Positions 8,525 through 54,001 are shown, counted from the first letter of the stretch. The stretch is DNA of 64,000 nucleotides from Ginglymostoma cirratum (GCA_024137785.1 JAHRHZ010000029.1:7601253-7665252); one strand, 5' to 3'. Translations and numbers: made by a program. Notes: a model not told the origin generated them from the letters alone.

Positions 8525-8656
8525 AGAGATAGTAGGAACTGCCGATGCTGGAGAATCTGAGATAACACGGTGTAGAGCTGGATAAACACAGCAGGCCAAG
8601 CAGCTCCTCTGATGCTGCTTGGCCTGCTGTGTTCATCCAGCTCTACACCGTGTTAT
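8525..8656. repeat. PLE-terminus fold-back: 43-bp inverted arms (8562-8604 / 8614-8656), 9-nt loop
   Basis: ATAACACGGTGTAGAGCTGGATAAACACAGCAGGCCAAGCAGC-TCCTCTGAT-GCTGCTTGGCCTGCTGTGTTCATCCAGCTCTACACCGTGTTAT, one mismatch. Confidence 0.9.
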
Positions 8657-10699
8657 TCCTATTTTTAAGTTGCTTTCAGTAATTCTAAATTAAAAAGTTA
8701 CTCACACGTGGCAAATTGACGTTGTGATGAGAAAAGCTTCTATTTTGAGACAAAACAAAATTGTTTGAAGTGTTGCCCCAGTAAGATGACTCATGGTCAA
8801 TATTACTCTACCCAACATGTTAATGCATTTGACTGAAAACTCATGGAGGTGGGATTAAACACTTGTCAAAACAGACTAATTTTGGGTGCAATTTGTGCTG
8901 AATTGCAAATTGTGCAAAATCCAGAAAGTTTACTTGAAACTTGCAGTTGTTAAATTGCAGACTACATCTGGTATTAATCAATTTTTTTTTGAAGAGTTCC
9001 CAAAAAGTCTCAGGACCTATGTCTGATTTGTTGAGTCCAGCCAGTTGTCATAATGTTGCAATTTGTTTTTTATGTGGATTCAGATCTCCCAATCTTGAGA
9101 TCATCAGAGACCAGAGGTACGACCCAAGATGCATGTTGGGATCCTATGGAAGTTTAAACGTGCTGATCTCTGTGGGAACTGCCTGGGAAGTTTGAATTTC
9201 TGATGTGTAATTCCCCTGGTCTCACAAATCTTTTGCTAAAGGCTTGAACTCTGAGTTAGAATCAGATCCTTCAGAGAGTTCCTGGAAATGTTAGACAGAT
9301 TAAAGCTCAGTCTAACTCCTGTGTAACTAAATGACTGACTCTTCTCAGTCACTCACACTGTACCCCTCTGACCCCACTGATCTGCTCTGATTAATCCAAA
9401 TGATCCCTTATCTATCCCCAACTAACCCCTCCTGACTACCCCACTGAACCCTACTATCTATTCCCCAACCTAAGCCAACCCAACTTCCCCTGACCCCCTG
9501 ATTACCTGCAATTTCCTGATTAACCTCCTAATCCAGCTTAACTGTCCGCCCGCAACCATGTTATCTCCTAGCACTCAATCACACCCCAACCAGATTTGGC
9601 AAGACCCTAACCTGACTGTCCCTTATGACCTGTCAATGCTGACCCACCTAACCATGTACATGCCGTTCCATTCACATGTCACACTATCTACTTTCACTTT
9701 ACTCATCTACCCACCCTCTATCCTATCCATCTGTTACCTTGTGCGTCTATGACTCCACTCAACTGCTACCTTGCCATCTGCTATTCTACCCAGTTAGCAC
9801 ATCACCCACATACCAACTTAACTCAACCACTTCTCATATTAATTACCTACCTCTCTTTCCTTTTCTCCTATTCATCAACTCACCCATTCACAAACATTCT
9901 TACTGGATATGTAGAGTTATCACATGCTAGCTAATGCCATATTAAGGGAGCACCTCCACTCTTCTCCTTGACTCCACAGCTCTGTCTAATGGACAATGTT
10001 CTCTTTATTTCTGGGGGATCAGAATACCTAGCAAGACATGCAGAGGAGACAGGGGACAGCAATGGAACTAAGCTCTGAGATGACCTCAATCATTATAACT
10101 GTTTTTCACATTGCGTCTGACAGGCAACTTGTTCAAACAATCCACCAAAGGAGAGCACGTTCATTTTCTAACCATTCAAAGTAGAGGATGGGAAATCATT
10201 GCAAGTGTACTCAAAATTTCCCAACATGCTCTGCTTACAGAAACAAGAGCTGGCCAAAGAAATCCTTCAAAGTCAATATTTTCTTAAGATTTATTACAAC
10301 TTGATGAAACAATTCAAGATGTCTGGGCCTTGCATGTAAGCTATAACTTTCAACTATGCCTGCTGACTTAAGTTTTCTTATTATAAATCACTATGATAAT
10401 GGAAATTATCAAGTAAGACATGGCATGCTTTAATGGAATCCTAGTGGAACACCACCTGTGTCTAAAAGAACAGAGTTATAGCATGACAAATCTAAATTGG
10501 TACTTCCCATCAAAAGTGTTGACTTAGGAATTCAGAACAGAAAACATTAACAGCAATTGAATGTATAAGATCATTAATGGATTAATAGATAGACATGAAA
10601 CAAATGCATGCTTTGAATAGATAATGAAATATGTCTGTGCATCCGACTGCAATTATCCACCAACCGAAAAACTGCACTCCGTATTGATTCCCTGTATGC

Positions 10700-11074
10700 A
10701 TGAGGAATGAGGGTCTTCAGTTGAGTGGAGAGACTAGAGAAATTGGAATTGCTTCCCTTGAGGTGGAGAAGGTTATTGTAAGTCTGAACAGACATATTCA
10801 AAATGATAACATGTTTTGAAAGAAAAGGAAGTGAGAAATGGTTTTGACGGGTGGAAAGGTCAATAGCCAAAAGACAGATGCAAGTCAATTGGCAAAAGTA
10901 AGGAAGGGAGATGAGATTTTTTTTGTACTGTTTTACAAAGAAAATCATTATGATCTGAATGTGCTGCCTGAAAAAGCTGTAGGAACAGATTGAACAGTAA
11001 CGTTCAAAAGGGAATTGGAAAACAGAATTGAAAAATAATCAGAGCAATCGGGGAAGGCAACACTGTCAACTAAT
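10700..11074 (+). mobile_element. Old CR1 3' remnant, host of PLE copy B; resumes after 12790
   Basis: GAGAGACTAGAGAAATTGGAATTGCTTCCCTTGAGGTGGAGAAGG, then GATCTGAATGTGCTGCCTGAAAAAGCTGTAGGAACAGATT, typical CR1 3' sequence. Confidence 0.6.
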
Positions 11075-12789
11075 TAGAGATAATAGGAACTGTAGATGCT
11101 GGAGATTCTGAGATAACAAGGTGTAGAGCTGGATGAACACAGCAGGCCAAGCAGCATCATAGGAGCAGGAAATCTTGACGTTTTGGGCCTAGACTCTTCA
11201 TCAGAAATGGGGGAGGGGAAGAGGGTTCTGAAATAAATAGGGAGAGAGGGGGAGGCAGATAGAAGATGGATAGAGGAGAGGATAGGTGGAGAGGAGACAG
11301 ACATGTCAAAGAGGTGGGGATGGAGCCAGTAAAGGTGAGTGTAGGTGGGGAGGTAGGGAGGAGATAGGTCAGTCCAGGGAGGACGGACAGGTCAAGGGGG
11401 TGGGATGAGGTTAGTAGGTAGGAGATGGGGGTGTGGCTTGAGGTGGGAGGAGGGGATAGGTGAGAGGAAGAACAGGTTAGGGAGGCGGGGACGAGCTGGG
11501 CTGGTTTTGGGGTACGGTGGGGGAGGGGACATTTTGAAGCTTGTGAAATCCACATTGATACCATTGGGCTGCAGGGTTCCCAAGCTGAATATGAGTTGCT
11601 GTTCCTGCATCCTTCGGGTGGCATCTTTGTGGCACTGCAGGAGGCCCAGGATGGACATGTCGTCTGAGGAATGGGAGGGGGAGTTGAAATGGTTGGCGAC
11701 TGGGAGGTGCAGTTGTTTATTGTAAACCGAGCGCTGGTGTTCTGCAAAGCGGTCCCCAAGCCTCTGCTTGGTTTCCCCGATGTAGAGGAGGCCACAATGG
11801 GTACAGCGGATGCAGTAAACCGCATTAGCAGATGGGCAGGTGAACATCTGCTTGATGTGGAAAGTCTTCTTGGGGCCTGGGATGGGGGTGAGGGAGGAGG
11901 TGTGTGGGCAGGTCTAGCACTTCCTGCGGTTGCAGGGAAAAGTGCCGGGTGTGGTGGGGCTGGAGGGGAGTGTGGAGCGGACAAGGGAGTCACGGAGAGA
12001 GTGGTCCCTCCGGAAAGCAGACAAGGGTGGGGAGGGAAAGATGTCTTTGGTGGTAGGGTCGGATTGCAGATGGCGGAAGTGTCGGAGGATGATGCGTCGG
12101 ATCTGGAGGTTGGTGGGGTGGTACGTGAGGACGAGGGGGATTCTTTTTTGGTTGTTATTGCAGGGACAGGGTGTGAGGGATGAGTTGCGAGAAATGCGGG
12201 AGACCCGGTCAAGTGCGTTCTCGGCCATTCCGGGGTGGGGGGGAAGTTGCAGTCCTTGAAGAACAAGGACATCTGAGATGTAGGGGAGTGGAATGCCTCA
12301 TCCTGGGAGCAGATGCGGCGGAGGCGAAGGAATTGGGAATAGGGGATGGCATTTTTGCAGTTCAAAATCTCCCCTCCCCCTACTGCATCCCAAAACCAGC
12401 CCAGCTCGTCCCCACCTCCCTAATCTGTTCTTCCTCTCACCTATCCCCTCCTCCCACCTCAAGCCCCACCCCCATTTCCTATCTACTAACCTCAGCCCGT
12501 CCCCTTGACCTGTCCGTCCTCCCTGGAGTGACCTATCTCCTCCCTACCTCCCCACCCACACTCACCTTTACTGGCTCCATCCCTGCCTCTTTGACCTGTC
12601 TGTCTCCTCTCCACCTATCTTCTCCTCTATCCATCCTCTATCCGCCTCCCCCTCTCTCCCTATTTATTTCAGAACCCTCTTCCCCTCCCCCATTTCTGAT
12701 GAAGAGTCTAGGCCCGAAACATCAAGATTTCCTGCTCCTCTGATGCTGCTCGGCCTGCTGTGTTCATCCAGCCCCACACCGTGTTACCT
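11075..12789 (-). mobile_element. Penelope-like (Neptune-like) copy B with inverted terminal arms and a 13-bp TSD
   Basis: ORF 11392-11847 VYCIRCTHCGLLYIGETKQRLGDRFAEH...HF...EQQLIFSLGTLQPNGINVDF (GIY-YIG); linker PLVLTYHP and TFPCNRRKC; arms ~11111-11538 and 12361-12789; TSD ACTGTCAACTAAT at 11062-11074 and 12790-12802. Confidence 0.95.
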
Positions 12790-12990
12790 ACTGTCAACTA
12801 ATCAGGTAGTTTTTGCAAAGTGATGTATTATGATGTGCTTTTGGGGGATACTATGTCATATTTTATCTGTGGCGATGGCCCTTTTAAGAGGAACTGATTC
12901 CTGGTTAACAAACCTAAGTCCCATTGAATGATCATATGACCAAGATGCCTTGGGGCTTGATAGGAGAAAAACAAGGGCAGCATGCTAACT

Positions 12991-14435
12991 CAGAGATGGT
13001 GAGAACTGCAGATGCTGGAGTCAGAGATAACACAGTGTGGAGCTGGAGGAACACACCAGACCAGGCAGCATCAGAGGAGCAGGCAAGTTGATGTTTTAGG
13101 TCAGGGCCTTTCTTCAGAAACCGGGGAGGGGGAAGGAAGCTCTGAAATAAGTAGAGAGAGGAGGGGTGGGGCTGGGGAAGGTAGGTGGATGGTGATAGGT
13201 GAGTACAGGTAGGCAGTGGTGGGGATTGGTCAGTGAGGTGGGAGGAGCAGATAGGTGGGAGAGAAGATGGACAGATTGTGTCAGGACGTGTCAGGTCTAG
13301 GAGGCAGGGATGAAAGGAGGGGATTGGTCATGGGAGAGGCCAGGGGTAGGGAGATTTTGAAACTGGTGAAGTCCACATTGAGACCATTGGGTTGTAGGCT
13401 CCCCAGGCGGAATATGAGGTGCTGCTCCTCCAGTTTCTGGGTGGCATCATTGTGAAATTGGAAGAGGCCCAGGATGGACATGTCACCCAGGGAGTGGGAG
13501 TGGGAGAGGGAGTTTAAATGGTTCGTGACCAGAAGGTGTTGTTGTTTGTCACGAATAGAGCGCAGGTGCTCTACAAAGCAGTCTCTGAGCCTCCACTTGG
13601 TCTCACCGATGTAGAGGAGGCCACATTGGGAGCAGCAGATGCAATAGACCACGTTGACGGATGTGCAGGTGAACCTCTGTCTGATGTGAAAGGTTTGTTT
13701 GGTGCCTTGAATGGAAGTGAGAGGGGAAGCATAGGGGCAGGTGTAAGCACTTCCTGCGGTTGCAGGAAAGGTGCTGGGGGTGGTGGGGCTAGTGGGGAGT
13801 GTGGAGCAGATGAGGGAGTCACGGACAGACCAGTTCCTACGGAAGGTAGATAGGTTGTGGGGTCAGATTGCAGGTGGCGGAAGTGGCAAAGAATGATTCT
13901 TTGGATACAAAGTTTAGGGGGGTGATATGTGAGGATGAGGGGGATTCTGTCTTTGCTTTTGTTGTGGGGAGGGGATGTGAGGGCAGAAGTGCGGGAAAAG
14001 CAAGAGATGCGGTCAAGAGCATTTTTAACTACCGAAGGGGGGATGTTGTGGTCCTTGAAATAAGAGGACATCTGGGAGTTCAGGAGTGGAACGCCCCATC
14101 TTGGGAGCAGACGCGGCAGAGGCAGAGGAGTTGGGAGTAGGGGATTGCATTCTTGCAGGAAGGTCGGTGAGAGGAGGTGTAGTCCTGGTAGCTGTGGGAG
14201 TCGGTGGGTTTGAAATAGATATCGGTGTCGAGGCGGTTACCAGAGATGGAGACAGAGAGGTCTAGGAAGGAGAGATAGGTATCAGAGATGGTCCAGGTGA
14301 ACTTGAGGTTGGGGTGAAAGGCGTTAGTAAAGTTGATGAACTACTCAAGCTCCTCGTGGGAGCACGAGGCAGCGCCGATACAGTCATCAATGTAACGGAG
14401 GAAGAGGTGAGGGATAGTGCCAGTGTAGCTGCAGA
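12991..14435 (-). mobile_element. Penelope-like copy C (divergent subfamily), 5'-truncated within RT
   Basis: Reverse strand ~14370-14410 encodes HLFLRYIDDCIG (RT YIDD); ORF 13281-13652 VYCICCSQCGLLYIGETK (GIY-YIG); TSD AGCATG(C/T)TAACT at 12979-12990 and 14436-14447. Confidence 0.93.
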
Positions 14436-16809
14436 AGCATGTTAACTATTGGGGTGGGTAGGTTCCTAGGCATGGTCCTCTGTTCAAGCAGTTTAATTTT
14501 AGAGTTTTAGCATAAGCTGGAGTGAAGGAAACATCTCTTTTAGCAGAAATCTGTTGAAATTCTTGGAGTTCGCTAAAGGAGTTATAACACTTGTTGACCA
14601 GACAACTCTACTGGTAATGGGTTGAATTTCTGGTATAGCTATGCTGAGGTGTGAGATAGTTTTAGATACAAAACTCAACAGTTAAGGAATATTAGAAAGG
14701 GGATATTCCTGACCCAAGATGCTTAAGGTGCTCAAGGCAACTACATTGAACAAGGAGGTTACAACCTTAGTACAATTACAGGAGATTTGCATGGACAACC
14801 CTGCTGGAAGGCTCAAGAAATCTAACTCCTTCTAGGAATTACTTACACAGTGCCCAAACCAAACACTTAATCTTCCAAGTTTTGATAAGTATATGACCTG
14901 AGAATTTTTCAATGTACATCAAATGGGTGGAGAAAGGGAGTTAAGAATTTAGTTTGAAAAAGTAGTTTTGTTCATTGTGATTTTATTCTCTTTGATGTAA
15001 TTGTAGTAATAGAATCTGGTTACGATAATTCATTTACTTTGTTTTTTTGTTTAAATTCCTTTTGTTTTAAACAGTGACACACGTAGCGTTATTATTTTAA
15101 TGAATACCTTAGTTTTCAGAATCTGAAAAAAAAATCCTCAAAATGTTACTGCTTTTGACTGAAATCATACAACTGGTAGAATTACAATGGGCTGGATGGC
15201 CTCATTCTTTGCAGCATAATTCTATACACTTATATTTTGACTCATAAAATATGCTTTTCTTTTCAAGTGTGTTTCCAGAGCAATATCAAGGAAAATCAAC
15301 CAGTTTGGGTCATATTTGTAAGTGCAATGTACAGCTAATGAGTGCTCTGATAAGACAAGAATAATTTTTCACCAAGCTGTATACTGAAATTCCCCTATGA
15401 TCCAAGCAATGCAGTATATACGGTTAAAGGAATCTTGTACCCATTCCTCTGGGTCTTCTTAGAAAGCTATTCTGAAATGCATCCAAGACCGCTACAATAC
15501 ATTTCGATATGTTGTCAGGGCCAGCTCTGAGTTCATCCAGTCTAATGGCTCCCAGGCTACTTCAGTCTATCATTAAGTCCTCATTTCACTCCTCAGCTAC
15601 TAGTTCTGAAAATGAATTCCAATAGCCTTTGCTTGTAAGTGCAGGCTACCACTGATACACAATCACTTCTTTCTGGAGCTGCAAGAGCCTGACAGTCCCC
15701 AGCAGCAAGCTGTTTAAGCTTCACTGCAAACTGGCATTTACATTTAGCAAGACACTACTCTGTTTGCATTGTGCTGAAACTCTTCCTTTATTTTATCTGA
15801 AAGCACACAGCTATCTGCTGATTGTCACTGACAATGGATGTAGTATCTCTCACTCCGTGACTGGTTGGAAACTGCAGACCAAGCAAATGATAAACTGGAT
15901 CCATCAATGACAAACAGCAGTAGGGAGCCTCAGTGCCTGTGGGTTTAACACAGGTAAAAATAAATTTTCTTGCCTCTTCTCAATTCATTCTATTAGGGAA
16001 GCAATGCATTTATTTTTCATGCGACCATTTGATTGTCACCTTAATTTTGCCTGCCAATTTTCACTGTTTATCAGGGGAATTCTGGGAGACATTGGAATGG
16101 AACACTGTATCCAGGACAGCAATGAAATATTACTGTGTGCAATCATTGACTAGAAAACAAGCTATGGAAAACAGATGGAAACATAAGGTTTCTCTGCCTT
16201 GTGTGTCTCTAGACACAGGATGTCATCTTAAGCCTAAGTCTAATCATTGACTAGCTGGCTCCAATTGAGAAGCTGATTAGACAGATATTTCCAGCACTGT
16301 TATCATGGATTTGCGGACAACCCACTCTGGAGTTATCTTCAAGTTTTAAAAGGACCCAGTTCAAGTGCCAAGACAGTGAGAAAGTGCGACGAAAACAAGT
16401 CAGCAGTGCATCACTGCCAGGAATGCCTTTCAAATGTTTTTGTTTCAAACATACTAATGTTGTCTGTGGCACTAACAATTAATAAAACGTCAAGACAAGA
16501 AAGCAAAGAGTAGTAGATGCCAATCTGTTTGATCCACCAGTTTAACTAAACGTTTCCACTGTGCCCAATACCATCTACAGCATGTATGGTAGCAAATTGC
16601 CCATGGTTTGTTTGGCGACACTTCCCTAATCCACAACCTCCATGGCAAGGCCAGCCCGCGCATGGAAACCATCGTCATTAATTTGGCTCGCTTTAAGTCA
16701 CACATCATCTGGACTTAGCCATTTATCACTGCTTCTTCATAAGTACTCAGTCAATACCCTGAAGCTCTATACCTAACAGCACTGTGAGAGTCACAAACAG
16801 TTTGGACAG

Positions 16810-17000
16810 GCCCAAGAAAAAGATGGAAGGTGGGATTGATTACATGAATAGAAAACAATGGTGCAAAGCGAAACGGGAGGATAATGGGAAGTGGAAATAT
16901 TGATCATGGCCTGAAATTGTCAAACTCAATATTGATGGCAAAAGACTATGAAATGCCTAAGTGACTAATGAGGTAATATTTCTGGTTATTGTTGGGAATG
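16810..17000 (-). mobile_element. Highly decayed PLE GIY-YIG C-terminal/3' fragment
   Basis: CTGAAATTGTCAAACTCAATATTGATGGCAAAAGACTATGAAATGCCTAAGTGACTAATGAGG resembles 13358-13420. Confidence 0.45.
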
Positions 17001-17345
17001 TTGCAATGGTAGCAGACTCATCTTTGAATTAGAAAGGTGTGCATTCAAGACCTCAGCACTGAATTCCAGACATATCAGCATAATACTGCAGGAGTGCTAC
17101 CGTGTTTGTCTTACAAATGAAGCCCCGTCTGCTCATTTGGATGAACATAAAAGATCCCATGGCTCCATTTTGAAAAAGAGCATCTGAGCGGCCTAGTATG
17201 ATCTCATTGCTTTTTGTGGGGTCTTGCTGTGTGTTTATTGGCTGCTGCAATTCCTACATTCCAAGAGTAACTATTTGAAATTATTTGATTTGCAGATGTT
17301 TGGCGGCTGTGAAAAGCACTTCAAAAATGCAAATCTTTGTCTTCA
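17000..17345 (+). mobile_element. DeuSINE (SacSINE1/AmnSINE-like)
   Basis: GGAGTGCT...CCCCGTCTGC...TAAAAGATCCCATGGC...TTTTGAA.AAGAGCA...CTTGCTGTG...TTGGCTGC...TTCCTACATT: Deu-domain signature. Confidence 0.75.
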
Positions 17346-17583
17346 TTTGTTTTCTTTATTGAACTTCAGTGAACCATCATTGGAGTCTGAGGACAGAGGG
17401 ATAAAAGTGAAGGTGGGATTGAGAATCAACGCAACGGGTGACCAGAAGCTCAGCAACAAGCATGCAAGATGAATAAAGATGTTACTCAAGTCAATTGTCT
17501 GATTAGTTTGGTCTTCCAGCTGTATAGAAGACAGCAACATGGACAGCCAATGCAGTGTACTAGCTTGGAAAAACAGGACATGT

Positions 17584-17922
17584 GGCAGCATGGCAGCTCG
17601 GTGATTAGCACTGCTGCCTCACAGAGCCAGGAACCCAGGTTCCACCCTCGGGCAATTGTCTGTGTGGAGGTCGCACGTTTTCCCTGTGTCTGCGTGGGTT
17701 TCCGCCAGGTGATCCAGTTTCCTCCCACACTGCAAAGATGTGCAGGTTGGGTGGACTGGCCAGGCTAAATTACCCCATAGCGTCCAGGGATGTATATGTT
17801 AGGTGGATTAGACATGGGAAATGCAGGGAAAGAAGAATGGGTCTGGGTAGGATGCTCTTCGAAGGGGCAGTGTGGACTTGTTAGGCCAAATGGTCTGTTT
17901 CCACACAGTAGGGACTGTATGA
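17584..17922 (+). mobile_element. HE1-type V-SINE
   Basis: tRNA-like head TTAGCACTGCTGCCTCACAG..CCAGG.ACCCAGGTT, V-domain GTGTCTGCGTGGGTTT...CCTCCCACA..CAAAGATGTGCAGGTT, CR1-type tail. Confidence 0.9.
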
Positions 17923-19684: not shown

Positions 19685-19782
19685 TACATGGTAGTATCCC
19701 TACTTCTGAGCAGGAGGCCCAGGTTCAAGTCCTACCTCTTCCAGCGGTTTATAATAAAATCTCTGAACAGGTTGATTAGAAA
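19685..19782 (+). mobile_element. Short tRNA-derived SINE
   Basis: A/B-box-like TGGTAGTATCCCTAC...CCCAGGTTCAAGTCC, then a short body ending GGTTGATTAGAAA. Confidence 0.5.
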
Positions 19783-24985: not shown

Positions 24986-27640
24986 ACATGATCATTAAAA
25001 AAATCAAAGCAGGACTACGCCATTCAACCCATCGAGTCTGCTCCTCCATTCAATAATTTTGTGGCTGCTCTGATTCTTTAATTCCACTTTTTCACCTAGC
25101 CCCCTAACCCTAAGCTCCCTTGCCAATCGAAAATCTGTATAATTCAGCTTTGAATACATTCACTGAACCAGTCCTCCACCGCTCTCTATAGAAGAGAGTC
25201 CAAAGGCCCATTCAGGAAATAAATTCTTCCTCATATCCACCATAAATGGGACATTTATGGATTTCTCTGAATTTTGGAGGACGGGTGCAGGTTCGAGAGA
25301 CTGAATGGCCTCTTTCTGCACTGTAGGATGCTATGATTCTATGATGGCGGCACTACGCACTGCCAGCTGGTCACAAGTTGCCACCTGGGTCTGTGTATAG
25401 TCAGCAGTCCGGAGAAACGCCCACCATTGCAAGAATAAGTGAATGACCCTGAGCATTAAGAGAGCAAGTGAGAAGCCCTAAGATCTACCCCTGTCCCATC
25501 CATGAAATGAAGACCTGTCGCTGTGTGTAAAGCGTTCTGGCAGCAGCATTGCAAAGCCAGAGTACAATAAACAGCAGTATTGAAACTGAGTGTGAGAGAG
25601 ACTTAGATTTTATTGTCATGGGTAGTGAAGTACAGAAGTACAGGAGTACAGTGAAAAGTGTACAACATCATCATACACGGCACCACCTTAGGTACAAAAA
25701 ACTTAGGTACAAAGTAGTATAAGAGAGAAACAAAGTTAACAAGTTAAGCATTACAGACCATCATTCTGTAAGTAGAAAATAAAGAAACAAGGTACTAGTT
25801 AACATTAAAGTTCTTCTTAACATAAATTAGAAAAATGAAGGAATAAGTAAAAATTCTACAGTTTTTCTTCAGTACTTCGCCATAATAGAGCCCCAATCGC
25901 CTCTGCTTAGCTCACTCTCTGGGAGACCTTAGGCTGTCTGTTCCCACTGCCACTGCAGATACCAGGGTCCTCCCTCACCACTCACTCTTCCCATGATGCA
26001 CCATGTTTTCCTTTACTTATTGCAAAAATATACTTTATTCATCGAAGGAAATCTTTATGTACATACACAGTTAATGCAGCCATTCCAATCTGTACTGTCA
26101 TTACTTACAGAGTACAAAATAAAACATTGGCGTTCGTCTTTCTCTATATTTACAACTAACCTCTTGGCATTTAGCTGAGGCATCAGCAGGGTCTGCTTAC
26201 TGAATGGATTCCCCATTAAGCTTTGGCAGAAGGACCTTCCATGGTGGTCTTTCCCCACTGCACCTTGATGGCGGCTGCCCCAAGCTTTAGTGTGTCCCTC
26301 AGCACGTTGTCCTGGACCTTAGAAAGTGTCAGACTGCAACACTCATTCAGGGTCAACTCTTTCAACTGGAAGACCAGCACGTTTCGGTCAGACCAAAGTG
26401 CATCTTTCAACGTGTTGATGGTCCTGCAGGCACGGCTGATGTTTGTCTCGGTATACATCCCGAGGAACAGACAGTAGAGCACAGAGTCCTGCATCACAGA
26501 GCTGCTCGATCGTACCTCAACAAAAACCATTGCATCTTCCTCCAGGCTTCCTTTGCACATTTCAGAAGGAGGTGTGTGACAGCCTCGTCCCCTCCACAGC
26601 CGCTTCGAGGGCAGGGTGCAGTGGCGCAGAGAGTCTGGGCATGCATTATGGATCTCATAGGCAGAGCCCTTCTCACCACCAGCCACGCTATGTCCTGGTG
26701 CTTTTTGGAAAGTTCTGATGATGAGGCATTCTGCCAAATGACTTTGGCAGTCTGCACAGGGAGCCACTCGACAGGATCCATCCTCTCCTTTTCCTGAAGG
26801 GTCTCGAGGACACTGCATGTTGACCACAGCCTGATGGGCTTGTGGTTAAAGGTGCTTTTCTTCACAAATTTCTCCACGAAGGACAGGTGGCACGGAACGG
26901 TCCAACTGCTTGAAGCCTTCCATAGCAATGAGGCCAAGCCTATCCTTCGCAACACCAGGGACAGGTAGAACCTCAGAAAGTAATGACACTTGGTGTTTAC
27001 GTACTGAGGATCTACACCACACACAAAGGTGGCCATCAGGGTGAGGGTAGCGTTGGGTATGTTTTCTCCCCTTTGTCCAGTTTCTTATACATAATGTCCC
27101 TTTGAACTTAGTCCATCTTCCACCTCCAAATGAAGTGGAAGGCGGCTTGGGTGACTGCAGCGGCGCAGGTTTGGGGCATAGGCCAGACCTGTGCCACATA
27201 CAACAACACTGAGAGTACCTCACACCTGATGGCCAGGTTTTCTCCCCCGCAATGGAGAGGGACCGACATTCCCATCTTCCTAGTTACTACCTCGCTTTGG
27301 TGACACTTGCTCTCAAGTTTTGGTGCATTCCCCAGCCCTTCCGAACCAAATTCCCAGCACCTTCAGTAGTCTGCCCTGACAGTAAAGGGAATGAAGGATC
27401 GGTCAGCCCAGTTCCCAAAGAACATGGCCTTGCTCTTGCCCCTATTGACTTTGGCACCCAAGGCCAATTCAAACTGACTGCAGATGCCCGAGCAGAAAAC
27501 GGCGACATCGTCCATGTACGGGGAGGCTTTGACACACAGGCTTCTTCTGCCTGGAAGAGTTACCCCTCTTCAGGCTCGCATCCTTCCTGATGGAATCAGG
27601 ATAAGGCTTTATGCAACATAAAAACAAGGCAGGAGAGAGT

Positions 27641-27746
27641 AGAGATAAAAGGTACTGCAGATGCTGGAGAATCCGAGATAACAAGCATAGGGTTGGATGA
27701 ACACAGCAGGTCAAGCAGCATCATAGGAGCAGGAAAACTTGACGTT
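27641..27746 (-). mobile_element. PLE terminus (copy D, long end) inserted in Tx1 RT, running into the gap
   Basis: AGAGATAAAAGGTACTGCAGATGCTGGAGAATCC... is the near-exact reverse complement of 685-790. Confidence 0.88.
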
Positions 27747-28146
27747 NNNNNNNNNNNNNNNNNNNNNNNNNNNNNNNNNNNNNNNNNNNNNNNNNNNNNN
27801 NNNNNNNNNNNNNNNNNNNNNNNNNNNNNNNNNNNNNNNNNNNNNNNNNNNNNNNNNNNNNNNNNNNNNNNNNNNNNNNNNNNNNNNNNNNNNNNNNNNN
27901 NNNNNNNNNNNNNNNNNNNNNNNNNNNNNNNNNNNNNNNNNNNNNNNNNNNNNNNNNNNNNNNNNNNNNNNNNNNNNNNNNNNNNNNNNNNNNNNNNNNN
28001 NNNNNNNNNNNNNNNNNNNNNNNNNNNNNNNNNNNNNNNNNNNNNNNNNNNNNNNNNNNNNNNNNNNNNNNNNNNNNNNNNNNNNNNNNNNNNNNNNNNN
28101 NNNNNNNNNNNNNNNNNNNNNNNNNNNNNNNNNNNNNNNNNNNNNN
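27747..28146. other. Assembly gap (400 N)
   Basis: Run of N. Confidence 1.
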
Positions 28147-40820: not shown

Positions 40821-40854
40821 ACTTGAATATTTCTAAATAAGCAACCACCCCAGC

Positions 40855-41070: not shown

Positions 41071-41117
41071 GTTATGAATTATATTAAAAAAAGTAAGGGA
41101 ATTGAAGTTTTATTCTT

Positions 41118-41539
41118 GTCAGTACAGTGTGGAGCTGGAAGAACACAGCAGGTCAGGCAGCATTAGAGGAACAGGAAAGTTGACATTTTGGGTGTACGGG
41201 ACCTTTCATCAGGACTGGGGAGGAGGAAGGGAGCTCATAAATAAATAGTGGGGTGGGACTGGACAAAGGCAGGTTGGGTGGTGATAGATGGATGCAGGTA
41301 GGGGGCAAAGGCAGGTTGGGTGGTGATTGATGGATGTAGGTAGGGGATTGTGGAAATTGGTCCCAGTGCCCCTCCCTTTTTATTTCTTAGCTCCCTTCCC
41401 CCTCCCCAGTCTTGATGAAGGGTCCTGACCCAAAAAATTGACTTTCTTATTCCTCTGATGCTGCCTGACCTGTTATGTTCCTCCAGCTCCACACTGTATT
41501 GACTCTGACTTCCATCATCTGCAGTTCTTGCTATCTCTT
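41118..41539. mobile_element. PLE-terminus fold-back element E (MITE-like) with TSD
   Basis: Arms ~41118-41260 and ~41361-41505 are inverted PLE termini with degenerate hammerheads; internal 42-bp tandem duplication ~41264-41346; TSD AAGTTTTAT(T/C)CT at 41105-41116 and 41540-41551. Confidence 0.85.
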
Positions 41540-41682
41540 AAGTTTTATCCTCAATTTGTTGTGGAAAATAAATGAATAATTAATGTAGAAATGCAACAAT
41601 TTTATAACATTCACAGAGATGTTGAAACTTAACACCACCTGTATAGTGACAGATCATTAATCATCATGTAGCAATTTTCAAT

Positions 41683-41990
41683 TCATAGAATCATAGAATC
41701 CCTGCAGTGTGGAAACAGGCCCTTCAGCCCAATGAGTCTACACCAACCCTCAGAGAAACCCACCCAGACCCATTCCCCTATTACCCATCTGATCTACACA
41801 TCCCTGAACACAATGGGCAATTTAGCACGGCCAATCCACCTAGCCTGCACATCTTTGGACTGTGGGAGGAAACCCACGCAGACATGGGGAGAATGTGCAA
41901 GCTCCACACAGATAATCACCCAAGAGTAGAATCGAACCCTGGGTTCCTGGCGCTGTGAGGTAGCAGTGCTAAACACTGAGCCACTGTGCC
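41683..41990 (-). mobile_element. HE1-type V-SINE with TSD CAATTCAT
   Basis: (TCATAGAA)2 tail, V-domain and tRNA head; CAATTCAT at 41679-41686 and 41990-41997. Confidence 0.92.
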
Positions 41991-44389: not shown

Positions 44390-44745
44390 TAGCTCTCCCA
44401 TCTTTGTGAATTCAAGACCCACTAATCCAGGGTGACATTCCAGTGTAATAATTAGGGAGTGCTTCACAGTTGGAGGTCTCATGTTCAGATGTTACGCAAC
44501 ACCAAAGGGTCCTTTTGCTCTCCCACATGGATGTAAAAGATCCCTTGGCAGAATTCAAACAGAAGTTGGAAATGCTCCCTGATGTCCCATCAAACTTTAT
44601 CTCTCTCAGCCAACACATGTAAAATAGATCAGTTGATCTCATTACTTGTTTGTGGGACCTCGCTGAGTGTAAATTGTTCTTGCATTTCTTATGTAAGAAT
44701 AGTGACTATACTTCAAAAGTACTTCACTGGCTATAAAGTATTGCA
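44390..44745 (+). mobile_element. DeuSINE (SacSINE1-like)
   Basis: GGGAGTGCT..GGAGGT..GGATGTAAAAGATCCCTTGGCA...GTTTGTGGGA...AGTGACTATACTTCAAAAGTACTTCACTGGCT. Confidence 0.8.
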
Positions 44746-45237
44746 CTACACATGCTGGTGCTATAATTACTGTGTCTACTGGTCTAATTCTGCCTTATTC
44801 CCATTTCATCTCCAGTTTACACTGCACTTGCGAGGTACATAATACAGTGAGTTTATACGCTCCTTGTCTTATAGACTTAGAAAGAGTTGAGTAAGCTTTA
44901 ACACGTATACTTGAGGTTTTTTTCCTTTATATTAATTCACAGGCTATGAACGTCACCGGCTGGACCAGCATTCATTGCCCATCCCAAGTTGCCCACACAC
45001 ACAGTCACCCAAGGCTGTAATCAAGCCTGGTTCACTGGTGCCTTGAGGCAGCAGTGCTAACAACTGAACATAAGAACTTTTTCTTCAAAATGGAGCCAAT
45101 GGCAATGCTAGTGCTAAAAAGCTGGTAAGACCTATCATTGAGGTGTGTACTTCCCATTAATGCCAGACAAAGGAGTGAAAATCAACCCCAGCTAATGACA
45201 GGAGATTAGCCTGTGATGTGCCCAGCAGGTTGACAAA

Positions 45238-45334
45238 TTTTCTGAAGAAGTGTCTAGGCCCGAAACGTCAGCTTTCCTGCTCCTCTGGTGCTGCTTGGCC
45301 TGCTGTGTTCATCCAGCTATACACCTTGTTATCT
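45238..45334 (+). mobile_element. Hammerhead-bearing PLE mini-element with a 12-bp TSD
   Basis: TSD CAGGTTGACAAA at 45226-45237 and 45335-45346; core CTGAAGAAGTGTCTAGGCCCGAAACGTC at 45242-45269. Confidence 0.9.
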
Positions 45335-45431
45335 CAGGTTGACAAACAGAAGTTTTCTCAATTCATACATGGAAAATGGCTTACTGGATAAAATACTCTC
45401 TCTAGTTTCCCATTGTCTAAAGAGGGCAGGA

Positions 45432-45792
45432 GGCAGTATGGGTGGTTTAGTGGCTAGCACTGCTGTCTCACAGTGCCAGGAACCTGGGTTTAATTCCACC
45501 CTTGGACAATTGTCTGTGTCGAGTTTGCATGTTTTCCCTGGATCTGAGTGGGTTTCTTCCGGGTGCTTCAGTTTCCTCCACAGTCCAAAGATGTGCACAT
45601 TAGGTGGATTGTACATGCTGAATTCCCCAGAGTGCACAGGGAGGTGCCGGTCTGGTGAATTAGCCATGGGAAATTCAGGGTTACAGGAATAGAGGAGGGA
45701 CCTGGGTCTGGGTGGGATGCTCTTCAGAGGGTCAGCATGGATTTGATGGGCCGAATGGCCTGCTTCCACATTGTAGGGATTCTATGATTCTA
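45432..45792 (+). mobile_element. HE1-type V-SINE
   Basis: Head, V-domain and GGGCCGAATGGCCTGCTTCCACATTGTAGGGATTCTATGATTCTA tail. Confidence 0.9.
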
Positions 45793-47817
45793 ACTAGAGA
45801 AAAAGAAACAGAGAAGAGCCCTTCCCTAACTGTCACAATAGTGATTATAGTGATTATAAAAAGTGATTATAAAAAGATTTAAAATATCCACACTCTAAAT
45901 TTGGTTCTTTTTTCCCATGACTCTCCTTTCCCACTTCTTGTTGGCGTATGGACATGGCCCCAGCTGAACTAATAACCTGTCTCATTCAGACTACTGCATG
46001 TTATCTACACCACTTTCTTGCCTTTGTGCTTTCTCTAATTTCAGATGATGTTAAACATGCTCAGAGATCAAAAAATAACTGTTCAGAGAGAGAAGTCACT
46101 TTTTACCCCCCAAGACAAACGGATTGAAAATTTTCCTGCACAACAGCCTTATTCTTCATGCTGTCCGTGACCTCATTTCTCCTCTTCTCACGTATGTTCA
46201 TGTTTAAGTTTTCTCCCATCCCATCTATGATTCCTCTTTTCCCATCATGTGACTTGAGTCCTTAACTGTTCCCAGCCTTGCCCTGGGTGAAATTCTAAGT
46301 GCCTGTGTTATACATACATTAATTCTCTAATGTCTGTATGGTGCTGTAGCAGTGGCATAAATGCAGAACACAATATACGCATTTTGTGCAATTTAGTCTC
46401 AGAGTAATAGTAGAGACTCAAAATTTCCAGCAAAGGTAGGTATAATAGGCTCAACAATTTTAATAAATAGATCTCGAGCAATTCTTAAATTGTCCTCGAC
46501 TTTTCACCTCTCCAACTTGACTCACTACCATTACGAATAAGAGATCTTTGTGTTGTCTCTTGCACGCTGAGAAATATCAGCCAATAAATCGAATCTTACT
46601 TCTCTGCACGGATCAGGACCACATGCTTTGTTTTATATTTGTGCAGTTTTGGGTCATTTTCAGGATATTTATAAACAACAAATGCAGACATTAAATTCCT
46701 CTCATGATCCTCATATATTTCTCCAGTTTGATTACACAAATTTGTTTTACTCCCATGTCTGCAGGTAAATTTTTTGAGGGGAGATTTCTCCTGTGCCTTG
46801 ATTGTTGCTGAGTAAAAACCCAGTTATGAAGAATAAGTCCATGAACTTTCCCCAAGTAGTCCATGGGGGATGGCTTGGCTCCTTCATTTGATTTGTAAAA
46901 TATGAGAAATGACATGTGTTAAGTGTACTACGCTTGTGTGAAATAGGAGACTTTAGAACTGTGGTTCTTAAAGCTCTTCATTGCCCAGATTTCCTTCATG
47001 TCTGAGTCTGTTGTAGGTTAATTGACAGAGACTGATTGTGATGACTGGACAACAGCTCCAGTACCACTGTACTCTTCAACTATCATCAATTAACTTTGGC
47101 TTTTTCTTCATCAAACAATTCTTATGTTAAGGAATTTATTCCACTTCCAGGCAGTGACTGGATTACAGTAAATGTTTTATTCCTTAATACTGCTAAAGAG
47201 CCAGAATAGGTTAAGCGCACTCATTTTAATCCACAGGGGGATCTATCGTACATTTTTATATTTAAATAGATAGTGATGTATCTCACTTATACTGCAGTCA
47301 AAGTTAATTATATTAAGTAGGACTCCGTTTTAAATGGTCAACCTGTCCTCTGCTTCTACCCAGTATTTGGACAATATAAATATAACCATTATTGGTTTTT
47401 CCAGTCTTCAACACATCACAGAATAATAATGAATGAAGTAAACCAGTTAATTCATTCATTCACAGTAACCCTCACATTGATACATCATGTGACTTGAGTA
47501 TGTATTGTATGTATTGTGTCTATTGTATCTATTGTAACACTCAGTTGTTTCCTAAATAACCTAGCTCGAGGCTCAAGGGGCCGAATGGGCTAGTCTTGTT
47601 CCTATTCCTTATAGTCTTATATGTGCTCCTTGAGAGGGAGCATACAATATCCATTGGTAGATACTCTTCAGGCCTGCTGTAACCAATGAACACTGCAGGG
47701 TCGACAGTGCATCAGCTCCTCCCAAAACTAAACTTTAATTTAATTTGATAAGTTTCCACTGAAATTCACTTCTTCGTTACAATGTCCCTTTAAGAGTTTG
47801 TACTTTAGTTAATCAGT

Positions 47818-48149
47818 TCATAGAACCCCAACAATGTAGAAAAAGGTCTTTCAGCCCAACAGTCCACACTGACCCTCAGAGCATCCCACCCAGACTCATC
47901 CCCCATAACCCACCTAATCTGCACATCCCTGAACACTATGTGCAATTTAGCACGGCCAATCCACCTAGCTTGCACATCTTTGAACTGTGGGAGTGAAACA
48001 GAGCACCTGGAGGAAACCCACTTAGACAAGGGGAGAATGTACAAACTCCACACAGACAGTCACCTGAGGGTGGAATTGAACCCAGGTCCCTGGCGCTGTG
48101 AGGCAGCAGTGCTGACCGCTGAGCCACCGTGCTGAGCCACCATGCTGCC
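47818..48149 (-). mobile_element. HE1-type V-SINE
   Basis: Similar to 41683-41990; short head duplication CTGAGCCACC(G/A)TG x2. Confidence 0.9.
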
Positions 48150-48819
48150 GAGTTGTGAAAGAAAAATAATAAAAGGCGGGTTCTATCACAGAAGAGGACT
48201 TTGTACCACCAGTTAACAAACGAAGAAGTTGTCCTTTCTGTGTGAAGAAAAATGTAGAAGGTTATGAGAAGAAATAACATTGGTGTTCAAAATTGTGAAG
48301 TGTTTGGACAGAGGGGGAAAAAAAGAAACTGTTTCCACTAAAAAGATTTAAAATAATCAGTAAAGGAACAAAAAGAAAGAAGAGGAGAAGAAAACCATTT
48401 TACAATGAACTATATGCTGTGAGCTGAAATTCATTGCTTAAAATGGTGATGGAAGCAGGTTCGGCCACAACTTACAAAAGCAAACTAGGTTCAGAAGGAA
48501 AACATTTGCACGGCTGTACAGAAAGAGCAGGTGAATGGGACTAATTAGATAATTCTTACATGAAGCCAGCACTGGCACATTTGAATGGTCCTTTTCTGTC
48601 TGCATGATTTTTTGAATAATTTGTCCGAACAGTACCCTTTTCTTGTTTGAACCTACGCCCCCAATTCTACTCACGCAGTTTAATTTAAAGATTTCTTCCA
48701 GAGGGCAGAGCTATTAACTAAGGTTTATTTGAGCTAAGCGGCAAGGGTCGACTAATGTTGGGAATTTATTTTTGTATTATAATATGTTTTCACAGTCTAC
48801 CAGCATTTATTTGTTCAAG

Positions 48820-49135
48820 GGTACAGTAGCATAATGGTTATGTCACCAGGCTTGTCGTCAGAGATGTGAATTCAAATCCCACGAGTGCGGTTTCTGATTT
48901 TGAACCAAGTTTATTCACTTAAAAATTCCACAAAAAAGAACCCCTTGGAATAAAATGTTAACCATGAAGTGAACACGAAGCTGTTGGAACGCTGGAAACA
49001 TCCAACTGGTTCATTACTATCTTTTGGGTAAAGACACCTGGTCTCCTTATCTAGAGTGCTCTCTACATGATTTCAGCAACACATCACGCGGTTGGCTTTT
49101 AATTATCCCTTCAAATTGCCTGTAAATCCACTCAT
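48820..49135 (+). mobile_element. tRNA-derived SINE related to 32451-32800
   Basis: TAGCATAATGGTTATGTCAC...GAATTCAAATCCCAC head; CAACTGGTTCATTA body. Confidence 0.55.
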
Positions 49136-49269
49136 TTTCTCCTGGTTGAGTAACCTTTAACTATCAATTCCTGTCCATCCAACTGGAGTTATGCTGAGGC
49201 AGTAGTACTCTTCCCATAAGGGCTGCATTATTTTCTAGATCTCATTCAGGAACCATCATCAACCTAAAT

Positions 49270-49870
49270 TAGATCATGGGCCTGGCAACAATTTCAAATT
49301 CTCATCTTCATGTTCAAATTCCTCGATGGCCTCCTTCCCATATTCACTTTAACACGTTCCAATCTTATAAAAGGTAAAGTCACCGCAGATCATAGGGCTG
49401 CTCTCTTAATAGAGAGAGATGACGCGTGGTGATTTAATTTGAGGTGCACCATGCCTCAGATAAGGGGAAAGGTTGAGAAGGAGCGTCCTTCACGGTAACA
49501 TCAGCTGCTGGAATGATTGAACCCGCACTGTTGGCATCACTCTGCATTGCAAATCAGCCATACAGCCAACTGAATTTGAAGAACTCCATGTTCCTCCAAT
49601 TCTGGCCTACTGCTACACTGTCTGTTCCTTTTGCTCCTCCCTTGGCAGGTAAACCTACAGTTAGGCCCTAAGCTCTCAAATGCCCCCCCTCAAGTTCTCT
49701 GCCTTTCCCCACTTCTCTCCTTTCCCTTAAGATATTCCTTAAATCCCATGCTTTAACTGTTCTTTTGATGACATTCCCTAGTTTATCCATCCTTTATTTG
49801 ATGGAGGCTTCATCTGAGTAAAGTCCTGTGATGTGTTTTCTGACATTAAAGATGTTATATAAAGTTATTG
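49270..49870 (+). mobile_element. L2 3' remnant with a nested minus-strand tRNA SINE (49370-49575)
   Basis: TTCAAATTCTCATCTTCATGTTCAAATTCCTCGATGGCCTC (FKILIFMFKFLDGL), GGCCCTAAGCTCT; the SINE matches 3645-3856. Confidence 0.55.
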
Positions 49871-50331
49871 TTCTTTCTCTTGGCGGAATTTTAAATATAA
49901 ACCTTTACATTAATCCATTGTAAGGATTGCGGTGTAAATTGATTGTTACGTTATTAAGATCTAGTGGAACAAGCTAACATAAAAGCACACAAATGTCTCT
50001 GCATGCCATTACCCTTCTTAGGATTTTTATTTAAATACAGCCACATTTTCCAAAATCTAATTTTAAAAGAAACGAGACATAAATCTTCCCCAAGACATGG
50101 TAATCCCAAACAGGTCAAAAAATCTGTTGATTTATTTTTCCTGAACAAAACATAATTTGCATTTATGCATTACCTTGAGTGATTTTGGAAAGGTGTACTC
50201 ACTGATGCAATTTAGGAAACATGGGGCAAAATTTTCAGACAGATAGTACACACAGTGTAACTTCCCTGCTCTTCCCTGTGATAAGATGCTGCTAAACTTG
50301 AAAGGGTTCAGAAAAGATTTATAAGGATGTT

Positions 50332-51623
50332 AGACAACAAGGTGTAGAGCTGGATGAACACAGCAGGCCAAGCAGCATCAGAGGAGCAGGAAAGCTGACG
50401 TTTCGGGCCTAGACCCTTCATCAGAAATGGGGGAGGGGAAGAGGGTTCTGAAATAAATAGGGAGAGAGGGGGAGGTGGATAGAAGATGGATAGAGGAGAA
50501 GATAGGTGGAGAGGAGACAGACAAGTCAAAGAGGCGGGGATGGAGCCAGTAAAGGTGAGTGTAGGTGGGGAGGTAGGGAGGAGATAGGTCAGTCCAGGGA
50601 GGACGGACAGGTCAAGGGGGCGGGATGAGGTTAGTAGGTAGGAGATGGGGGTGTGGCTTGAGGTGGAAGGAGGGGATAGGTGAGGGGAAGGACAGGTTAG
50701 GGAGGCGGGGACGAGCTGGGCTGGTTTTGGGATGCGGTCGGGGGAGGGGAGATTTTGAAGCTTGTGAAGTCCACCTTGATACCATTGGGCTGCAGGGTTC
50801 CCAAGCGAAATATGAGATGCTGTTCCTGCAACCTTCGGATGGCATCGTTGTGGCACTGCAGGAGGCCCAGGATGGACATGTCATCTGGGAAATGGGAGTG
50901 GGAATTGAAATGGTTCGCGACTGGGAGGTGCAGTTGTTTGTTGCGAACCGAGCGTAGGTGTTCCACAAAGCAGTCCCCAAGCCTCCCCTTGGTTTCCCCG
51001 ATGTAGAGGAGGCCACAACGGAACAGCGGATACAGTATACCACATTAGCAGATGTGCAGGTGAACATCTTATTGATGTGGAAGGTTTACTTAGGGCCTGG
51101 GATGGGGGTGAGGGGCGTGGTGTAGGGACACGTTTAGCACTTCCTGCAGTTGCAGGGAAAAGTGCCGGGTGTGGTGGGGCTGGAGGGGAGTGTGGAGCGG
51201 ACAAGGGAGTCATGGAGAGAGTGGTCCCTCCGGAAAGCAGATAAGGGTGGGGAGGGAAAAATGTCTTTGGTGGTGGGGTCGGATTGCAGATGGCAGAAGT
51301 GCGGGAGGATGATGCTTTGGATCCGGAGGTTGGTGGGGTGGTAAGTGAAGACGAGGGGGATTCTGTTTTGGTTGTTATTGCGGGGAGGGAGTTTGAGGGA
51401 TGAGTTGCAGGAAATGCAGGAGACACGGTCGATGGCATTCTTGACCACTGACGGGGGGAAGTTGCGGTCCTTGAAAAACGAGGACATCTGAGATGTTCAG
51501 GAGTGGAATACCTCATTCTGGTAGCAGATGCGGCGGAGGCAAAGGAATTGGGAATAAGGGATGGCATTTTTGCAGGAAGGTGAATGGGAGGAGGTGTATT
51601 CTAGGTAGCTGTGGGAGTCGGTG
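50332..51623 (-). mobile_element. Penelope-like copy F (short end, 5'-truncated, no TSD)
   Basis: GIY-YIG C-terminus ORF 50697-50966; linker ORF 51134-51487 (IPLVFTYHP, TFPCNCRKC). Confidence 0.94.
50397..50424 (-). ncRNA. Minimal hammerhead ribozyme motif (intact core)
   Basis: Reverse complement CTGATGA-A-GGGT-CTAG-GCCC-GAAAC-GTC. Confidence 0.7.
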
Positions 51624-53140
51624 GCCAGGTTGGAGGTTTGAGCTGTAGGGAGAAGTTGAATTGGCTGGGGCTATTTTCCCTAGAACATTGGAGGCTGAGG
51701 GGTGATCTTATAGAGTTTTTTAAGTCACAAGGGGCATAAATAGGACGAATAGCCAAGGTCTTTTCCCAAAGGTAAGGGAGTCCAAAACTAGACGGCATGG
51801 GTTTAAGGTGAGAGGAGAAATATTTAAAAGGGTTCTAAGGGGTAACATTTTCACGCAGAGAGTAGTGCGTGTATGGAACAACTGCCAGAGGAAGTGGTGG
51901 AGGCTGGTACAATTACAACATTTAAAAGGCATCTGGATGGATCCATGAATAGGAAGGGTTCAGAAGGGTATGAACCAAATGGTGGCAAATGGGACTAGAT
52001 TAATTTAGGATATCTGGTCGGCATGGACAAATTGGACTGAAGGGTCAGTTTCCATGCTGTACATCTCGATGACTGTACGATCCATTCCACTGGACAGGCC
52101 AAGCAAGGCATTGTTTTATAATTTCATCTGAATTCTGCACGACTGACATTATAACATTCCCTCAGTACTGCACCAGGATTGTCAGACTAGAGTTGTCCTT
52201 GACAGCCTCAACATGATGTAGTACTTGAGGTTTTGGGCTGAATTTTCCCATTTTTTTGGCAAATTTTCCCATTTTTCAATAAGATTCGTGGCCCATGAAG
52301 CCAAGTTAGATCCTTGGTTTTCTAACAGGTTCCTCATGGTGCTGGTGAATGGAATGGTGCGATAGGATCTTTCCTACTGACTGACTAACGGGGCTACACT
52401 ACCAGATTCCAAGCCTGGACAGAGACAGCATCTCAGGGCAGTGCAGCATCAAGGAGAAAACCTCATGCCCAGTAGCTCATGAAGAAACTTGAGACGGGGT
52501 GATACTATGAAAAGCAGAGGCCCTTGCATAGTCTCTAACCAGAACACTGCGCAGGGGGCTGACCCCTCCACCCGAACCCTACCTAAACCCCGTCTCCAAC
52601 CCTTGGAACTTCCAGCTGAAGAGCAATACCTTGCATCTGGCAAGAGGACTCTTGACCTGCCTGGCCCACTGCTGATTGCCGATATGCCTTGAAAGACAAG
52701 TCAGCCCTTGCAGGGCATCATAGCAGTGCATCGGTAGATGCCAGGATGGAGGCAATGAAAATAGAGTGCCAATATCCATGTGGAAGGGTCCTTGCAGTGC
52801 TCCTGATGAATTGCTTTGCAGTTTTTCCGTGAGCGAGATGGAGGTCATTCTGAGGAGGTGGTGAACCTGCCAAGAACCCCCTCTGGTTTCTATACCAAGT
52901 GTTCCAGAGGGCTAGTTTGTATGGTGAGTTTGATCGGATTGCAATCCATGGTGAAGGTTGGGCTGTTAGCAAGTCATTTAAATGAGCAGCAATGATCAAA
53001 TTAGCAACTCTCCACTGATGACTAAGAATCTCTACACGCTCATTGAGAAAAGTGTATAAAATGCAGTGAAATGATCTTGCTGTTAAAATGGGCCTTGCCA
53101 AACATCTCACCACAGCCCATGCCAGCCAAAGCCAGGGTAA

Positions 53141-53329
53141 TAGTCGAAATCACACAACACCAGGTTATAGTCCAAAAGATTTATTTGAAAATACAAGCTT
53201 TTGGAGCTTCTCTCCTTCTTCAGGTGTTTCAGAGTGAATTTGTGTTTGCAAATAAACCTGTTGGACTGTAATCTGGCATCATGTGATTTCTGACCTTGTC
53301 CACCCAGTCCAACACCGGTACCTCCACAT
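53141..53329. mobile_element. Fold-back mini-element of a second, probably PLE-related family, with a hammerhead-like motif
   Basis: Inverted arms GAAATCACACAACACCAGGTTATAGTCCAAAAGATTTATTTG / CAAATAAACCTGTTGGACTGTAATCTGGCATCATGTGATTTC; minus-strand CTGAAGA-A-GGAG-AGAAG-CTCC-AAAAGCTT; possible TSD CAGGG(T/C)AA. Confidence 0.65.
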
Positions 53330-54001
53330 CAGGGCAAGGTTCCACTTTGTGACTCTAACATTGGGATATTAATCCACAAACTTCTGAATCAGCAGTGAAC
53401 GTCGCCAACAGAATCTTGGATTGTTAAACTGGATTGTAGAGGGGTGGAGTGGGAAGGAGGAGAAGTGGTAGAAACAATCCACTTTGGAAAAGGTGGCTTT
53501 TTAAAAAGCTGGGCACGCAGTTATTGAGAAGGAGCATTGATTTAACTCGCCTGTGAATACTGGCTCTCAGCCTTCTGCACTAGGTTACGGCATCATGAAA
53601 TGAACAGATGATTTTATGCAACACTTTTTTTTCTACCATAGGAAGATATTTCTTCTTCTCCCTTAATGGTTATTAAGTCTCCGAAGTCATATAAATTTGT
53701 CAGAATCTCATGAAAAGCTGCTGATTTAAGTTTATGGATTTTACAAAACCATCACCCCTCCCCCATCGCCACTCCTTTTATCCACCATTCATAATGACAC
53801 CACCATGAACATTAAAACCCAGGTCAGCAAGAATCTATGCACAAACTGAGAGCAGTACTGGGGATTGGAAAATACATGAACTAAGCTGTCTTGGGTTGGT
53901 CAAGCTAGGATCAGCTGCTCCTTGTCTTGTTCTGGTTCATGTAGACAGGGGTGCGGGGAATGGGAAACGGAGTAAGGCCTATGGAGCCACAGGTTGGTGC
54001 A

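Follow-up and report, generated by a model that had tools for sequence, protein, structure and literature searches.

Penelope-like elements (PLEs) carry a recognised hallmark, a 'tail' that extends 30-40 bp beyond the hammerhead-bearing pseudo-long terminal repeat (pLTR) (Arkhipova et al. 2013, PMC3846280; Craig et al. 2021, PMC8557442; PMC2377424). In the descriptions given by the first two of these papers, the insertion is an inverted repeat with a short duplication of the target, and the tail is found at one of its ends, on either side. A 34-bp repeat is also described for Penelope of Drosophila virilis (PMC2377424). The passages on the tail in these three accounts are qualitative ('optionally', 'often'), and in them we found no end-pair counts, no comparison of arm extents and no shark family. 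How PLEs form inverted repeats is named as a future task in PMC8557442. Here we analyze four head-to-head PLE insertions, or fold-backs, in a 64,000-nt stretch of the Ginglymostoma cirratum genome (GCA_024137785.1 JAHRHZ010000029.1:7601253-7665252). This stretch is called the window below, and its positions serve as coordinates.

The closest biochemical system is PAc, the Poseidon element of Anolis carolinensis (Frangieh et al. 2024, PMC11167929). In vitro, its protein cuts and extends both target strands, and reverse transcription (RT) starts from two adjacent sites that bound the tail downstream of the hammerhead. The start sites are alike on the top and bottom target strands, genomic ends lie at the same two sites, and the protein is predicted to form a dimer. 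The named start region of the PAc template, +111-118, begins with ACAAC; by our count by eye, the motif recurs about 35 nt upstream, and this upstream copy may represent the second start site. As reported, the PAc experiments leave the pairing of the two sites on one target molecule unaddressed.

A precedent for two target ends priming on RNA is L1 twin priming, in which the products are joined through microhomology, the target is duplicated and the 5' part of the element is inverted (PMC2912911). In L1, however, the second primer anneals upstream by microhomology, and the two parts cover different sequence. In the window fold-backs, both arms instead start from fixed sites that lie 35 nt apart, and the region they copy is the same, so that a true inverted repeat results. 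We therefore do not class them as L1-type twin-priming products, since the arms overlap fully from fixed 3' sites, though the mechanism may resemble twin priming.

Fold-backs with a tail on one arm

Main-family copies were found by comparing the window with itself, and end classes were assigned by aligning 14 termini. An unbiased inverted-repeat scan for nearby arms, covering the whole window, returned exactly four PLE fold-backs and no fifth (Table 1). Each joins a long, tailed end to a short, tail-less end (8526-8656, 11077-12789, 41119-41538 and 53141-53329), as the initial annotation had stated for every fold-back. The tail-bearing side varies: fold-backs 1 and 2 are long on the left and short on the right, while fold-backs 3 and 4 are short on the left and long on the right. 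Fold-back 4 belongs to a second family, for which an analogous asymmetry had also been correctly recognized. The window further holds six single-armed copies, with a long end at 3209 and 12991 and a short end at 8397, 45238, 50332 and 55407. These copies, and a long end at 27641 that enters an N gap, were absent from the initial annotation. All PLE copies in the window are 5'-truncated and broken.

Table 1. Positions of PLE copies, fold-back arms and flanking duplications in the window
Feature	Position	Strand	Remarks
Copy A, left arm	1..383	-	runs off the window, end type outside it; PLE linker CX4CX2C, GIY-YIG; 94% to Rhincodon typus protein; PF01541 above cut-off
Copy A, right arm, long end	382..790	+	pLTR; hammerhead-like core 663; short site 755; tail 756-790; 2-nt AG junction overlap
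Solo copy, hammerhead core to long end	3209..3337	+	no target duplication found
Solo copy, older subfamily, short end at 8397	8397..8497	-	no target duplication found
Fold-back 1, left arm, tailed	8526..8604	-	tail 8526-8559
Fold-back 1, right arm, tail-less	8603..8656	+	11 nt more 5' extent than tailed arm; no target duplication
Fold-back 2, target-site duplication, left copy	11062..11077	.	13-nt exact core
Fold-back 2, left arm, tailed	11077..12360	-	tail 11077-11110; 5'-truncated body with GIY-YIG
Fold-back 2, right arm, tail-less	12361..12789	+	nested inside left-arm extent; 28/428 positions unlike left arm
Fold-back 2, target-site duplication, right copy	12790..12805	.	
Solo 1.44-kb copy, older subfamily, long end	12991..14435	-	RT YIDD near 5' truncation; 12-nt duplication 12979-12990 / 14436-14447
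Tailed end entering 400-N assembly gap	27641..27746	-	partner unseen
Fold-back 3, left arm, tail-less	41119..41345	-	at least 52 nt more 5' extent than tailed arm; duplication copy 41105-41116
Fold-back 3, right arm, tailed	41363..41538	+	duplication copy 41540-41551
Solo copy, hammerhead core to short end	45238..45334	+	exact 12-nt duplication 45226-45237 / 45335-45346
Solo 1.3-kb copy, short end, within LINE fragment	50332..51623	-	no duplication
Fold-back 4 (second family), left arm, tail-less	53141..53228	-	~26 nt extra 5' sequence including CTGANGA core
Fold-back 4 (second family), right arm, 35-nt tail	53240..53329	+	weak 8-nt duplication 53133-53140 / 53330-53337
Solo copy, hammerhead core to short end	55407..55499	+	exact 12-14 nt duplication 55395-55408 / 55500-55513

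The two end classes are sharp. Seven family copies carry a hammerhead-like CTGANGA...GAAA core with a short stem II, and distances were measured from the C of CTGANGA. Short ends lie 93-94 nt from it (five of the seven copies measured) and long ends 127-128 nt (the other two). The tail is 33-35 nt long in all eight tailed ends measured, second family included, slightly less than the ~36 nt first suggested as the spacing of the two end points. The ATCT-like motif that had been assigned to both ends is present on the main-family long ends and on most short ends; it is replaced by ACCT at 12789, GTTAT at 8656 and TGAC at 41119, and neither end of the second family has it. Searched with Rfam, the window gave no match at gathering score, and a search of 50300-50500 with E up to 10 detected no hammerhead.

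That three short ends differ by a few bases from the ATCT motif might recall long ends shortened by random truncation or decay. We regard this origin as highly improbable. The shared distance of five short ends from the core speaks against it, and three short ends directly adjoin the target duplication; a common end point beside intact duplications refutes decay.

How far the pairing departs from chance depends on the end frequencies assumed. Discordance in 4/4 fold-backs has P = 0.0625 with equal frequencies, 0.039 with the 2/6 frequency of the solo copies and 0.23 when the eight ends are permuted. With P = 0.04-0.23, the window alone therefore establishes no pairing rule. The same range leaves room for independent choice, in which the arms are primed separately, on two RNAs or on two pLTR copies of a tandem transcript, and the 4/4 discordance is luck. 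We think this unlikely, and the tendency towards one-ended tails is already described in the literature (PMC8557442).

The main family is an endonuclease-bearing (EN+) PLE by the definitions of PMC8557442, as judged from its coding remnants and end structure. The endonuclease encoded in its body is of the GIY-YIG kind, has cysteines between its two motifs (YCIRCTRC...YIGET plus downstream histidines) and is preceded by a CX4CX2C linker that reads CNRRKCYTC in copy A and in the protein P0001. PF01541 scored above cut-off in two of three endonuclease segments, the third giving E = 0.045. An RT YIDD motif is present in the longest copy, 12991-14435, although its 30-aa piece alone has no Pfam match. 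In P0001 (94% identical), a single chain carries GIY-YIG and an RVT_1 match that stays below cut-off (E 9e-5). The YIDD copy and P0001 agree with a reverse transcriptase upstream of the endonuclease in one open reading frame (ORF). The inverted pLTR structure is present in the four fold-backs, two of them with significant target-site duplications, as is the optional one-ended tail of 30-40 bp. Among protein matches, one from Rhincodon typus ranks first (94%), and a Stegostoma tigrinum protein matches at 87%; no full-length protein of the main family was found.

A CX2-5CXXC linker upstream of GIY-YIG is a feature of Neptune, shared with Nematis and absent in Penelope and Poseidon (PMC8557442). 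By this motif the main family is Neptune-type, which sets it apart from the Poseidon element PAc (PMC11167929). The second family is represented in the window by a single non-coding copy, and its putative assignment to PLEs draws on structure: inverted arms, a 35-nt one-sided extension and a CTGANGA core.

A two-site priming mechanism had been put forward as not known to be described for shark PLEs. Our literature search found no publication on shark PLE ends, a search on twin priming brought up papers on other subjects, and the family's terminal sequence had no matches in a bacterial and archaeal genome collection. The tail itself, however, is not lineage-specific and is already known for PLEs generally; the shark Neptune-type family therefore adds a member, not a mechanism.

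We also looked at the tail itself. By eye it resembles the preceding 35 nt in the main family (TCCAGC...TATCT twice), a resemblance absent in the second family. Scored as a degenerate tandem repeat against dinucleotide shuffles, one of eight tails reached P < 0.01, two reached 0.05-0.06 and five were not significant; among control segments, one of eight reached P = 0.04. These scores make only a weak case that the tail is a degenerate repeat. Pairing of the tail with upstream sequence in a conserved RNA stem, though predicted in several copies, was unsupported: z-scores ranged from -1.4 to +0.8 in nine folds, and none of 13 consensus pairs showed compensatory changes. For the tail as a candidate start of the ORF, the reading frame through it is open at 3213-3338 and closed in copies A, 12991 and 41118, and of the six homologs examined out of nine, none continues from the tail into a PLE ORF. 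The peptide matches examined come from short gene models that may end in splice artefacts, and they were left out of the count of end types.

Target duplications and the first cDNA

Target-site duplications were sought for ten elements and one composite and compared with 500 random position pairs. Five of the ten elements (11077, 41119 and the solos 12991, 45238 and 55407) have duplications of 12-16 nt that outscore 499/500 random pairs. Those of fold-back 2 (11077-12789; 16 nt, one mismatch) and fold-back 3 (41119-41538; 12 nt, one mismatch) fix both ends of the insertion. The candidate at fold-back 4 (8 nt, one mismatch) was matched in score by 55/500 random pairs, and no duplication was found at fold-back 1 (8525) or at the solos 3209, 8397 and 50332. 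The end positions of fold-backs 1 and 4 consequently rest on the alignment. The composite, a single short/short insertion spanning 8393-8658, was rejected, as no duplication flanks it and its 8397 part is of an older subfamily than the 8525 arms.

The single-armed copies show which site can prime. Solos with 12-14 bp duplications begin at the short site (45238, 55407) or at the long site (12991), and the duplication length is equal in both types. Either site can therefore start the first complementary DNA (cDNA). This bears on the proposal in the initial annotation that two defined sites prime the first and second strands, respectively. The two start sites probably stand, but the strand assignment is unsupported, because duplicated single-armed insertions start at either one; the start sites are also alike on both strands in vitro (PMC11167929).

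The equal duplication length also bears on a published type of explanation, in which an inverted structure forms first by self-priming, possibly on antisense RNA, and the endonuclease then cuts this intermediate at the boundary of the tail, so that only one side keeps it. One tail per insertion is what this order of events predicts, and 4/4 fold-backs have it. Nevertheless, we hold it to be improbable: the duplication length does not differ between the solo types, we saw by eye no clear palindrome at the junctions beyond the arms, and both end positions correspond to sites where RT starts on RNA in vitro (PMC11167929).

Arm extents and the formation of the inverted repeat

In three of the four fold-backs the arms are not nested. 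In fold-back 1, with the 11077 arm as the scale, the start is 1197 for the tail-less arm and 1208 for the tailed one. With copy 12991 as the scale, the tail-less arm of fold-back 3 extends to 1223 or beyond, against 1275 for the tailed arm. The tail-less arm of fold-back 4 carries ~26 nt more 5' sequence. The tail-less arms thus have extra 5' sequence (11, at least 52 and ~26 nt) but lack the tail; each arm holds sequence missing in the other, and therefore neither is a plain copy of its partner. This is suggestive, though not proof, of twin priming from both target strands rather than DNA snap-back, with four elements as the sample, and the observation is possibly new. Fold-back 2 shows the opposite nesting, its tailed arm being 824 nt longer on the 5' side. 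For copy A, the corresponding starts are 861 for the tailed arm and 284 for its partner.

DNA snap-back is the nearest form of the earlier first-strand/second-strand idea. A first cDNA from the long site would fold and be copied back, the copy would stop at the short site, and it would then join the other target end. The nesting of fold-back 2 is as this route would have it, and the arms of the main-family fold-backs share private variants (three in fold-back 2, six in fold-back 3) or are near-identical (one of 43 positions differing in fold-back 1). We still rate snap-back as quite unlikely. The three non-nested fold-backs depart from it in a direction that needs a later deletion, the tailed arm of copy A is the shorter one, and the short-site solos with perfect duplications indicate that the short site primes first strands.

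The sequences of the fold-back 2 arms return us to separate priming. These arms differ at 28/428 positions, more than the left arm differs from the unlinked copy 50332 (17/427), and for nine of the 24 differences scored, each of the two alleles is also present in other copies. Both observations fit independently chosen templates. The difference in rate between the arms was not significant, however (9 vs 18, P = 0.12), and four versions of the relative-rate test for different templates gave P = 0.06-0.29.

Our preferred reading, which we consider moderately probable, is that these are ordinary insertions of an endonuclease-bearing PLE and that long and short ends differ by the PLE tail. The encoded protein would cut both target strands ~12-14 bp apart, as the duplications show here and as a relative does in vitro. 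RT would then start at either of two RNA sites ~35 nt apart, as in vitro for the relative; the two sharp end classes suggest the same for this family. Priming by one target end would yield a single-armed copy, tailed or tail-less, and both kinds are seen. Where the 3' ends of both target strands serve as primers on RNA, in twin target-primed RT, two antisense cDNAs would grow inward, and joining of their 3' ends over 0-3 shared bases would produce the head-to-head fold-back. Read by eye, the overlap at the junction is 0 nt in fold-back 2, 2-3 nt in fold-back 1 and 2 nt in copy A. The geometry is most simply read as antisense cDNAs from opposite target strands, that is, as two first-strand events. 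The two priming events would tend towards different sites, so that the tail is usually one-sided, as in 4/4 fold-backs here and 'often' in the literature.

Several points weigh against this twin-priming reading. Only four fold-backs are available, with the pairing probabilities given above. Non-nested arms could also result if the middle of an inverted repeat were later deleted, and the nested fold-back 2 is equally compatible with snap-back. Two of the four fold-backs are without a convincing target duplication. The in vitro data come from a Poseidon element, whereas the window family is Neptune-type by motif. Published interpretations also differ, one invoking endonuclease resolution (PMC8557442) and another self-priming on an antisense template (PMC3846280).

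A stricter version of twin priming, which we put forward as a tentative possibility, would make the pairing obligatory. A PLE dimer would sit on one RNA segment, with one reverse transcriptase at each of two similar sites 35 nt apart, each supplied by one of the two strands of the staggered cut. Of the two enzymes, that at the short site would run ahead, and that at the tail site would follow and displace the cDNA of the first. Such a dimer predicts exactly one tail per fold-back, with the tail-less arm usually reaching further 5'. The tail-less arm does so in 3/4 fold-backs, or 4/5 if the left end of copy A is short. If the dimer reading is true, PLE inverted repeats would be explained as single-RNA twin priming. 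We lean towards single-RNA twin priming over independent priming and snap-back on these four cases.

Short copies, subfamilies and neighboring repeats

All four small main-family solos (3209, 8497, 45238 and 55407) start 0-6 nt upstream of the CTGANGA core, and not at the expected cleavage site ~25 nt downstream of it. The left arm of the second family (53228) likewise starts near its CTGANGA core. In simulations, the chance that four 5' ends fall within 5 nt was 0.0001-0.013, depending on the assumptions. The shared starts suggest that the RNA has a fixed 5' end, that RT stops at the ribozyme fold or that a short master element, itself non-autonomous, gave rise to these copies.

The segments 640-790, 27641-27746 and 55407-55499 form a young subfamily (1-3 differences in 71-93 nt) in which both end types are represented. 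The tailed end at 27641-27746 is 96% identical to copy A and enters the only assembly gap of the window (400 N, 27747-28146); a young inverted repeat may be the cause of the gap. Younger and older PLE insertions lie 30-200 bp apart in two places, 12789-12991 and 8397-8526. This spacing may reflect chance or a preference for inserting close to existing copies.

The short-ended solo at 50332-51623 interrupts a fragment of a long interspersed element (LINE; 50270-51700), which we take to be CR1-like. The flanks match other copies of the LINE to within about one base, with no duplication. Fragments at ~950-2900, with an ORF at 1632-2237, resemble what is presumably the pol region of a Gypsy-type LTR retrotransposon. 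On the minus strand, the broken ORFs at 26216-27283 resemble, as we assume, the C-terminal part of a Tx1/L1-like LINE protein. A dispersed repeat of ~350 bp, with 67-80% identity between copies, occurs at 17571-17922, 41686-41989, 45419-45787 and 47818-48134 and is probably a short interspersed element (SINE).

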